Below are positions 4,101 to 6,434 of a DNA stretch of 6,434 nucleotides, piece after piece. The DNA comes from a virus (taxonomy: Duplodnaviria; Heunggongvirae; Uroviricota; Caudoviricetes), in IMG/VR virus record IMGVR_UViG_2648501110_000021. The stretch is one strand, 5' to 3'. A program made the position numbers. Positions within the stretch are counted from its first letter, which is position 1. Each line of letters starts with the position of its first letter.

Positions 4101-6434
4101 TTTGAATATATGTTCAAAATTTCTTTTGTTTGATTTTCTATTTGATCTTAAATTATTCAATTCTAGTGTTAGATATATGGATTCTTTACCGTATAGATCA
4201 TCAAAAAGTAGTGGTGTACTAAGTGAAAACTTATGCCTCACTGTTTGCATATAATGATTTTCTGGTTGTGTTATAATGAGCTCACCTTTTTTGGGGGGAG
4301 CGTAGTCCAAATGAAATGGCAGAGGGTGTACAATTATATCTCGTGCAATTGTTTTATAAATATTGAACTCATGCTCTCGGTTATCTTTTATGAAATCTCT
4401 AAAGAAAATGGATTTTCTATTATCGGATCCTATTTCGAATCTGTAATAATGATCCTTTATTAATTCAACTATGTAATCTCTTGCAGCACCTCTGCCATTG
4501 CGATTCCATATTCCTGTTTGAGAAAAAGTAAGCAATTCATGATATCCCCTAATGTAATGTTCTTGCTCTTGTTCTTTCTCTAATTTTGTTAACAAATTGT
4601 AAAATGGCATGAGTTTTGGTACTATTGATTCTTCTAGCTTTTTTGCAGTAAGAACACCCAATTTTTCAGCTGGTGCCGCATGTTCTTCTGGAAGAGATCT
4701 TGAGTGTCTGATATTAATTTCATTAAATAGATTTCCATGACCGCTGTATGATTTGTAGTTGTTGTTTAATGTTTTAAATATTCCTGAGGCTAGTAATAGT
4801 CCATTAAGTGCGATTTTTTTATAGTGAACTCCATCTGATTGCGTGGTAATAGGTAAGGTTTCTTTATTTTCTATATAACTATCAAAAAAATCTTTCTGAA
4901 GAGCTTTTCCCTTTGATATTACCTGTTCGATATTATCTGTTAACATCTCTGATGTTTCGCTATCGAATAGTTTGTTTTCCTTCCCAACAGATATATGCTG
5001 AAATGATTCTGAAGAATGTGCCATTGCCTGTGGGGTTAATTCTTTAAAAATAATGTTAGTATATACATTAATATCATTATAACCAAGATTCTCAGGATTT
5101 ATAATATGTTTTAAGAAGAAATTTAGTAAAATTTTTTCTGGAGATATTTCTATCTCTGATGTTTCTTTTTGTGGGACGATTAGATATCCTTTTTCATCAA
5201 CGGCAATAAACAATTCGCTTATGTTATCTTCTTTTTTATTATATGCATAAGTATTTGCAATATGTATTTGACATTTATTTATATCAGTTTCTGGTAAGCT
5301 GTCTATGTAATAGTTAACTAATCTTCTGAGTGTTGGACTATGCGAATATTGGTGCTGTAATATTCTACTTACATTGTCTTCTATGATATCATTCTGGGGA
5401 TAAAAGAAAATGTCGTAAATATTTAAATTGTATTTTTTTTCATTTCTTGCTACTTCATCAAAAGTGTATTGTTTTTGTGTTATTTTAGATATTTGATCAT
5501 TAAAAATAATGTCATGATTAATTTCTGATAGCTTTCTTAGATAGTTGTTGGTGTCCCATGTTTGGGGAGCTTTAGTTTTCGATGAGTATATTGGGCTATA
5601 TGAATGGATATTAGAGACTGTTGGCATTTTGTCCTCCTTTGCATGCAATCAAACTTGATATAAAGCTTCCGCTACTTCTATATCGGAGTTCTTTTGTAAT
5701 GCTTTTCAAGAAGAAGTCAAGATATTAAAAGCATTTTATTTGTGCCCTAGAGCTTTGGAGAAGTAATATTACAGTTTTAGGAGCATTGTTTTAATGCCGG
5801 TTTTTATACGAATTGTTGATATAGATGATAGAAGTTTAGGCAAAAGAAATTCTAATTCATTTACAGCTATAGTACCGTTTGTCATTTTTCTTTGCGACTA
5901 TGCAGATTTCAATACGCATAAAAACCCCTTTATACTGTGTCTATATACAGCATTATTTTGGCTGTATGGATAAACAGTGTCAAGGGTGAGGAAAAGTGAT
6001 TTTTTGGGGCATTTTGGGGCATGATTGGGACACTTTTTATCGGCGAAATTCGTCGAAGTTCGTCGACATGGTAAACGAATCATCTATCCAACCCTTGAAA
6101 AACGGCGCTCCTGGACGCTCTTCGTCGATTTTTAAAAATGTTGCGTCACGCGCGTAACGTGACAGGGTTAATATCACAAAGCAACGCCACTTCACCAATT
6201 GTGTAAAGCGCCATCGTCTCACCCTTGCTCGCGAGGTCCCGGTTTAACTTTAGACGCAGTTTTGCGAACCAGGTAGTTTTGCCCGTTTTTTGTGCATCTA
6301 TAGGGTGATTTTATTTTTGCCAGGCGATTTTGAGTGATCGGGTGATGCTGCCAACTTACTGATTTAGTGTATGATGGTGTTTTTGAGGTGCTCCAGTGGC
6401 TTCTGTTTCTATCAGCTGTCCCTCCTGTTCAGCT

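Follow-up and report, generated by a model that had tools for sequence, protein, structure and literature searches.

An iterated segment next to IS1 in a caudoviral contig is very probably the attR of a lambdoid prophage in Escherichia coli mlrA

Introduction

What do clustered short repeats mark when they lie between an effector gene and an insertion sequence? This question is raised by the virus record IMGVR_UViG_2648501110_000021 (Caudoviricetes), of which a stretch of 6,434 bp, here called the window, was analysed. Between the promoter region upstream of a large minus-strand effector gene and a terminal IS1 element, the window holds a segment of about 370 bp (5974–6340) that an earlier note, made without database searches, had left unassigned. 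The note took the repeats for a protein-binding array of the kind formed by recombinase arm-type sites, iterons or regulatory operators, and considered the segment a possible remnant of a prophage end or attachment region, or of another element into which IS1 had inserted. Here we propose that a lambdoid prophage has integrated in E. coli mlrA (also called yehV) and that the segment comprises its right attachment site (attR) and the chromosomal DNA beyond it; judging from sequence comparison, we put the probability of this reading at roughly 0.9. Junctions of this kind are already known and annotated in VT1-Sakai-type phages.

A phage–chromosome junction in mlrA

The segment is a composite of three parts, with phage DNA at 5984–6146, a 20-bp core at 6147–6166 and chromosomal DNA at 6149–6340, while its first 10 bases (from 5974) fall within the promoter of a dinI-like gene. 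The features of this layout, including the IS1 end that follows it, are:

5984–6146, no strand: P arm of attR, phage DNA reaching from the dinI promoter to the core
6147–6166, no strand: common core CACGCGCGTAACGTGACAGG, 20 bp, identical in the window attR, the left attachment site (attL) of O111:H2 12A and the empty bacterial site (attB) of K-12
6149–6214, minus strand: 5' fragment of mlrA (yehV), 22 codons, translation MALYTIGEVALLCDINPVTLRA, closed by TGA at 6148–6146
6215–6340, no strand: divergent mlrA–btsS (yehV–yehU) intergenic DNA, 126 bp, the upstream region of mlrA
6341–6434, plus strand: left end of IS1, 100% identical to the ends of IS1A/IS1B in >5000 plasmid records, running off the window

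The boundary between phage and chromosome is sharp. When positions 5900–6340 were searched by megablast against 5,426 complete E. coli genomes, the part from 6147 to 6340 was found in every genome at ~100% identity, where the annotation assigns it to mlrA and the DNA upstream, whereas 5900–6146 was present only in genomes with a prophage at mlrA; at least 80% of the query was covered in 450 of the 5,426. Consistent with this, the alignment of the window with K-12, where the site is empty, starts only at 6147, and from 6001 to the core the sequence is 92–95% identical to the right ends of VT1-Sakai, YYZ-2008, JLK-2012, BP-4795 and the yecE-type Shiga toxin (Stx) phages. This search, which the earlier note had suggested, thus placed a prophage end to the left of 6147 and chromosomal backbone to the right.

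The best genome matches, O111:H2 12A and O55:H7 RM12579 (99.5–99.8% identical), share one gene order: lambdoid tail genes (J, lom, tail fibre), DUF1076/NleG, a 1128-amino-acid DUF4765 protein, the attR segment and btsS-btsR-yehS. In 12A, the 3' part of mlrA is found about 50 kb further left, together with genes for a tyrosine integrase and an excisionase; a complete lambdoid gene set follows. On account of this gene order and of the distant mlrA 3' part with int and xis, the window represents the right-hand end of a prophage that has mlrA as its integration site.

The chromosomal side carries a genuine gene fragment. The 22 codons at 6149–6214 are 100% identical to the 5' end of mlrA in thousands of genomes and are annotated as a truncated coding sequence in three E. 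coli loci and as yehV' in VT1-Sakai; two bases of the closing TGA come from the core and one from phage DNA. The view that the segment holds no convincing open reading frame (ORF) was thus sound for the phage part, where three ORFs of 53–61 amino acids overlapping the segment had no Pfam match, but it missed this mlrA 5' end. The rise in G+C content reported before was also found, from ~0.30 in the large minus-strand effector gene to 0.40–0.47 in the segment, and is explained by the fact that about half of the segment (6147–6340) is chromosomal backbone. As to the suggested prophage-end remnant or attachment region, the attachment region stands, while "remnant" does not fit a complete attR of which nearly half is chromosome.

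At the attL of 12A, the 3' part of mlrA was annotated by the Prokaryotic Genome Annotation Pipeline (PGAP) as a full 233-amino-acid "MlrA" that begins within the phage P' arm, which implies an N-terminally altered fusion ORF.

Structure of the core

Attachment sites are expected to share a short core, and the 20 bp at 6147–6166 are indeed common to attR, attL and attB, with flanks that diverge on the expected sides in a three-way comparison of the window attR, the 12A attL and the K-12 attB. The identical 20 bp are annotated as "attachment site of VT1-Sakai" in the GenBank record, and JLK-2012 and several further phage records mark the corresponding position as attR or as an insertion duplication. 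The inverted repeat described in the earlier note is present and proved to be part of this core:

6145–6163, no strand: inverted repeat GTCACG-CGCGTAA-CGTGAC on the phage/chromosome junction; putative core-type integrase sites

A repeat search showed GTCACG-N7-CGTGAC to be the centre of a longer imperfect palindrome, its two leftmost bases being phage DNA and the remainder core. Among yecE-type phages (Stx2_EH2201, Stx1_14040 and the PPompW-nested phages), whose integrase is 83% identical and whose P arm is almost the same but whose insertion site differs, the outer GTCAC...GTGAC is kept and the centre is altered (GTCACGCAGTTAAAGTGAC). Similarly, Klebsiella phage RothC has GTCACGCAGTTAAAGTGGC at the core, with conserved half-sites and a different centre. 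Because the half-sites are kept while the centre differs in both cases, GTCACG and CGTGAC look like a pair of core-type integrase sites in inverted orientation, with the region of strand exchange between them. From this geometry, the spacer CGCGTAA (6151–6157) would be the 7-bp overlap, a length within the 6–8 bp expected of a lambda-type attR.

Three further observations concern the core. In Stx2_EH2201, Stx1_14040 and Stx2_12E129_PPompW the P arm is ~92–96% identical to that of the window and the core reads GTCA[C/T]GCAGTTAAAGTG[A/G]C, so that the window type and the yecE type make a natural pair, with att specificities distinguished chiefly by the core; one of these yecE-type phages is nested inside another prophage (PPompW). 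The "complete genome" record of vB_EcoS_phi330 contains the 20-bp core twice in tandem at ~2640–2690, which points to a record assembled from joined prophage ends rather than to a true attP. On the minus strand, the core palindrome (6144–6164) followed by CAACATTTTT, with a T-run to 6134, resembles an intrinsic-terminator hairpin directly after the truncated mlrA stop; it could keep transcripts from the mlrA promoter out of the prophage, or it could be a coincidence.

Predicted tandem arm-type sites for the integrase

The P arm begins with a cluster of direct repeats:

6005–6033, plus strand: three tandem candidate arm-type sites, TGGGGCAT (6005–6012), TGGGGCAT (6015–6022) and TGGGACAC (6026–6033), spaced 10 and 11 bp

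A repeat search recovered the tandem motif of the earlier note, TTTGGGGCAT twice at 6003–6022, in another register, as TTTTGGGGCA at 6002–6011 and 6012–6021; the two copies are followed by a degenerate unit, TTGGGACAC. With the relaxed motif TGGGRCAY, the third, degenerate copy falls at 6026–6033. This motif has four matches in the window against 0.68 expected, three of them clustered at 6005–6033.

The integrase gene is located outside the window; the integrase, excisionase (Xis) and attL considered here are those of the 99.8% identical 12A prophage. The P' arm of the 12A attL contains ATGGGGCAT-ACATGGGACAC in the same orientation as in the P arm, 76 bp past the core and abutting the int stop codon. 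Across 63 kb comprising the 12A prophage with flanking DNA, a count over both strands gave three copies of TGGGGCAT in all, each in an att arm. Pfam assigned to the 12A integrase both an N-terminal arm-binding domain (Arm-DNA-bind_2, residues 7–70, E = 2e-24) and a tyrosine recombinase domain (Phage_integrase, E = 5e-18).

Relatives of the integrase were collected by tblastn over annotated phages, as the integrases of viral contigs were 98–100% identical and uninformative for comparison. Seven relatives with integrase identities of 43–83%, the yecE type included, had tandem motif pairs in both arms, and an eighth (YP3) had one in the P' arm only. Their units are of the GGGGCA type, tandem and ~11 bp apart. 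The relatives outside the yecE type include:

Klebsiella RothC, integrase 72% identical: P arm ATGGGGCAT twice; P' arm ATGGGGCAT and ATGGGGCAA, 76 bp from the core
wrbA-type Stx phages, integrase 66% identical: P arm 4 units; P' arm 2 units
Yersinia YP3, integrase 64% identical: P' pair only
Tritos, integrase 62% identical: P arm 2 units; P' arm 2 units
PHB10, integrase 44% identical: TAGGGGCA variant in both arms
Rac of K-12, integrase 43% identical: attR 3 units; attL 2 units

Between close relatives the number of units varies in 11-bp steps, with two in Stx1_14040, three in the window and five in BP-4795. Based on the recurrence in the P' arm, the confinement to att arms within 63 kb, the Arm-DNA-bind_2 domain and the same arrangement across relatives, we identify the TTTGGGGCAT-type repeats, which occur in both arms and are distinct from the core, as predicted arm-type sites of the integrase. 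The protein-binding array suggested earlier is borne out in this sense, with recombinase arm-type sites rather than iterons or operators.

Candidate excisionase and IHF sites

Core-ward of the arm sites, the P arm holds a second set of repeats:

6049–6066, plus strand: tandem TTCGTCGA-AG-TTCGTCGA, 10-bp period; candidate excisionase (XisR/DUF1233) sites
6085–6097, plus strand: weak candidate site TATCCAACCCTTG for integration host factor (IHF), one mismatch to WATCAANNNNTTR
6104–6139, no strand: core-proximal conserved block GGCGCTCCTGGACGCTCTTCGTCGATTTTTAAAAAT, which holds the third TTCGTCGA (6121–6128)

As previously noted, TTCGTCGA occurs at 6049, 6059 and 6121. It is found nowhere else in the window, three copies compare with 0.14 expected, and none of 200 shuffled sequences reached three. 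The first two copies lie just core-ward of the arm sites, and the motif is not in the P' arm of the 12A prophage. At the same position RothC has a tandem AAATTTCGCC/AAATTTCGTT and the wrbA type a tandem AAAGAACGTAT/AAAGAACGGTG; a tandem repeat with a 10–11-bp period is thus kept across three att groups, while its sequence differs. The Xis proteins of these groups all belong to Pfam DUF1233 and are only 46–54% identical, the arm-binding domain of the integrase being far better conserved. In 12A, the DUF1233 Xis gene (Pfam) adjoins int. Moreover, XisR of the Rac prophage binds an attR fragment in an electrophoretic mobility shift assay (PMC4632033). Given the repeat kept with changed sequence, the divergent Xis and the binding of XisR to attR, we assign the tandem TTCGTCGA pair to the excisionase, an assignment from position and correlation that we consider slightly more likely than not.

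The block around the third copy, GGCGCTCCTGGACGCTCTTCGTCGATTTTTAAA, follows a different pattern. It is conserved in RothC (GGCGCTCCTGGACGATATTTGTCGATTTTTAAAT) and partly kept in wrbA-type Stx phages (CTCTTGGACGATCTTCGG), despite the divergence of the remaining arm.

Alternative explanations

Several points weigh against the attR reading or its parts. The site assignments within the segment come from comparison, int and xis lie outside the window, and their presence in the source strain is assumed from syntenic genomes. The link between TTCGTCGA and Xis is positional and correlative, the third TTCGTCGA lies in a differently conserved block and perhaps has another binding partner, the putative IHF site at 6085–6097 matches no better than background (1.55 matches per kb in a consensus scan), and the first two arm sites are spaced 10 bp in the window allele versus 11 bp in relatives. 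The doubts about TTCGTCGA bear on the most substantial rival, which leaves the attR otherwise in place: the copies could be sites for IHF or Fis, additional integrase contacts or a conserved spacer. The assignment to Xis was made by comparison; the block around the third copy is kept even by wrbA-type phages, although their Xis is no more than 46% identical; and TTCGTCGA is 92–100% conserved among closely related P arms only, which gives it little discriminating power. Against this stand the tandem direct repeat of 10–11-bp period at one position in three att groups, the shift of its sequence as Xis diverges, the absence of TTCGTCGA from the P' arm and the attR binding of the family member XisR (PMC4632033). 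We regard such other roles as a serious possibility, at somewhat below even odds.

Two readings that dispense with an attachment site fare much worse. The iterated motifs might be regulatory operators, or iterons, serving the adjacent dinI-like/effector promoter or a replication origin; indeed, the arm-type cluster starts ~20 bp upstream of the –35 element of the dinI-like SOS promoter, where binding could affect the promoter. However, the motif pair is repeated at the opposite end of the prophage, where it overlaps or adjoins the 3' end of int with no dinI promoter anywhere near, as well as in relatives without dinI at this place (RothC, Tritos, PHB10 and Rac), and for these reasons we rejected this reading. 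Moreover, the recognised regulator sites of the promoter are LexA boxes, and no rep or initiator gene was found in the window or its flanks, leaving this explanation very improbable. Less likely still is that the segment is decayed coding sequence with repeats as relics of coding repeats. It does contain a real gene fragment (6149–6214) and is overlapped by mechanically called ORFs of 53–61 amino acids, but the direct repeats are situated outside the mlrA fragment, the homologous regions are non-coding in every phage record inspected, and among relatives motif units are gained and lost in steps of 11 bp rather than in multiples of three. A coding origin was rejected on the lack of any Pfam family for the three ORFs. 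By the earlier note's own account, its view would be refuted if the segment matched the inside of a known gene and the repeats were attributable to coding sequence; such a match exists for 6149–6214 only, which has no direct-repeat motifs and into which the right arm and spacer of the inverted repeat extend. A structured RNA was also considered and rejected, Rfam having returned only a sub-threshold chance match on the LexA-box palindrome.

Proposed mechanism and comparison with known att systems

With the segment read as attR, its parts can be placed in the standard mechanism of a heterobivalent tyrosine integrase, as predicted from sequence. The three tandem arm sites (TGGGGCAT, TGGGGCAT and TGGGACAC) would bind the N-terminal domain of the prophage integrase, and the tandem TTCGTCGA pair would most likely bind an XisR-type excisionase. 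During excision, the integrase would bridge arm and core sites of attR and attL, with the P arm shaped by Xis and host bending proteins, possibly including IHF, and recombination within the presumed 7-bp overlap would restore mlrA.

The closest known counterparts are the Stx1 prophage VT1-Sakai (Sp15), CP-933V and other yehV prophages, which have the same site, 20-bp core and truncated yehV' as the window. The P arm of VT1-Sakai is 95% identical from 6001 to the core, and a dinI-type SOS promoter adjoins in both. In contrast to VT1-Sakai, the window has an NleG and DUF4765 cassette in place of most of dinI, a different sequence in the leftmost 25 bp of the arm, a first arm-site spacing of 10 instead of 11 bp, and an IS1 located 174 bp beyond the core in the chromosomal flank.

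The att site of phage lambda comprises integrase arm sites P1 and P2, Xis sites X1–X2, IHF sites and a core C-O-C' with a 7-bp overlap. The window resembles it in the long P arm (~160 bp here) on the tail-gene side and the short P' arm beside int, in arm-type repeats ~120–150 bp from the core, in tandem direct repeats between arm sites and core, and in inverted core sites flanking a 7-bp spacer. Unlike in lambda, the arm domain of the integrase is Arm-DNA-bind_2, another Pfam family, the arm motif is of an unrelated GGGGCA type, the excisionase is of the DUF1233/XisR type, the arm sites point in the same direction in both arms, and the P' arm extends into the int coding region. The IntR/XisR system of Rac, whose att lies in ttcA of K-12, shares the integrase family (43% identity), the Pfam family of Xis and GGGGCAA repeats, three in attR and two in attL. 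It differs in core and target gene and has no similarity in arm DNA beyond the short motif.

These comparisons led us to a broader proposal, namely that a GGGGCA arm code is the shared att architecture of the whole IntR/Arm-DNA-bind_2 family, with a group-specific 10–11-bp tandem repeat inside the P arm as the XisR-type excisionase site. We offer it tentatively, at slightly less than an even chance. The architecture may consist of tandem pairs ~11 bp apart, in the same orientation in both arms, with the P' pair 76 bp from the core, and the family may include the yehV-, yecE- and wrbA-integrating Stx phages, Gifsy-2 and Rac. As targeted literature searches returned nothing specific on arm-type sites of yehV or Stx integrases, the family-wide code may not have been written down before. 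If true, att sites could be located, and the excisability of Stx prophages predicted, by a simple rule on sequence. The motif would be useful for annotating Stx-phage att sites, an increment on a well-understood mechanism.

For the source strain, the segment shows a prophage in mlrA, and its main value lies in correct annotation. Disruption of mlrA limits csgD/curli-dependent biofilm formation in O157:H7 and other Shiga toxin-producing E. coli (PMC3874044, PMC5931665). As far as this end is concerned, arm and core sites are intact, which suggests that excision of the prophage, with restoration of mlrA, could still take place.

The IS1 insertion

Beyond the mlrA fragment, the 126 bp at 6215–6340 are identical in K-12, O111:H2, O55:H7 and O157:H7, where 95 bp more follow to the btsS ATG. 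The insertion point of IS1 at 6340/6341 is thus 126 bp upstream of the mlrA ATG and 174 bp beyond the core, around GAGTGATCG; in alleles without the IS, the btsS ATG is 95 bp away from it. Since 6215–6340 is mlrA–btsS intergenic DNA, the target of IS1 was the chromosome and not the prophage or another element, contrary to what had been suggested; the comparison with an IS1-free allele proposed in the earlier note gave this answer directly. The insertion is later than the prophage. The IS1/chromosome junction was not found in the 5,426 complete E. coli genomes or in GTDB representatives, and all 10 inspected contigs encoding an identical DUF4765 protein were IS1-free at this place. IS1 in the mlrA–btsS control region and an effector cassette replacing dinI are the traits specific to the window. 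The insertion would outlast excision of the prophage and could alter the expression of mlrA or of btsSR (pyruvate sensor).

The dinI remnant and the effector cassette

On the phage side, the P arm is preceded by the following features:

1494–2063, plus strand: NleG-family gene (Pfam T3SS_NleG, E = 4e-46)
2241–5627, minus strand: DUF4765 gene, 1128 amino acids (Pfam, 1747 bits)
5857–5919, minus strand: truncated dinI-like gene, ATG 5919–5917, stop 5859–5857, translation MRIEICIVAKKNDKRYYSCK
5935–5983, minus strand: SOS-type promoter of the dinI-like gene, –35 TTGACA at 5983–5978, –10 ending at 5955

Only ~10 codons of the dinI-like remnant are homologous to the intact gene. An intact 82-amino-acid DinI-like protein is encoded at the same place in O157:H7 PA20, and the records of VT1-Sakai, phi330 and other phages show dinI in this position. 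The promoter contains two exact CTGT-N8-ACAG matches to the LexA box (5935–5950 and 5962–5977), and the homologous VT1-Sakai sequence is annotated as "putative SOS box" and "putative promoter of H0001 and H0002".

Between the tail-fibre genes and attR, the NleG and DUF4765 genes make up a cargo cassette of low G+C content. It sits where most yehV- and yecE-type relatives have dinI, either alone or accompanied by other effectors (nleC, espV, an avirulence-like protein). The LexA-box promoter is intact and points at the DUF4765 gene (ATG 5627) ~290 bp downstream, and no terminator-like site was detected between the two. The DUF4765 effector-like gene may receive SOS-induced read-through transcription from this promoter.

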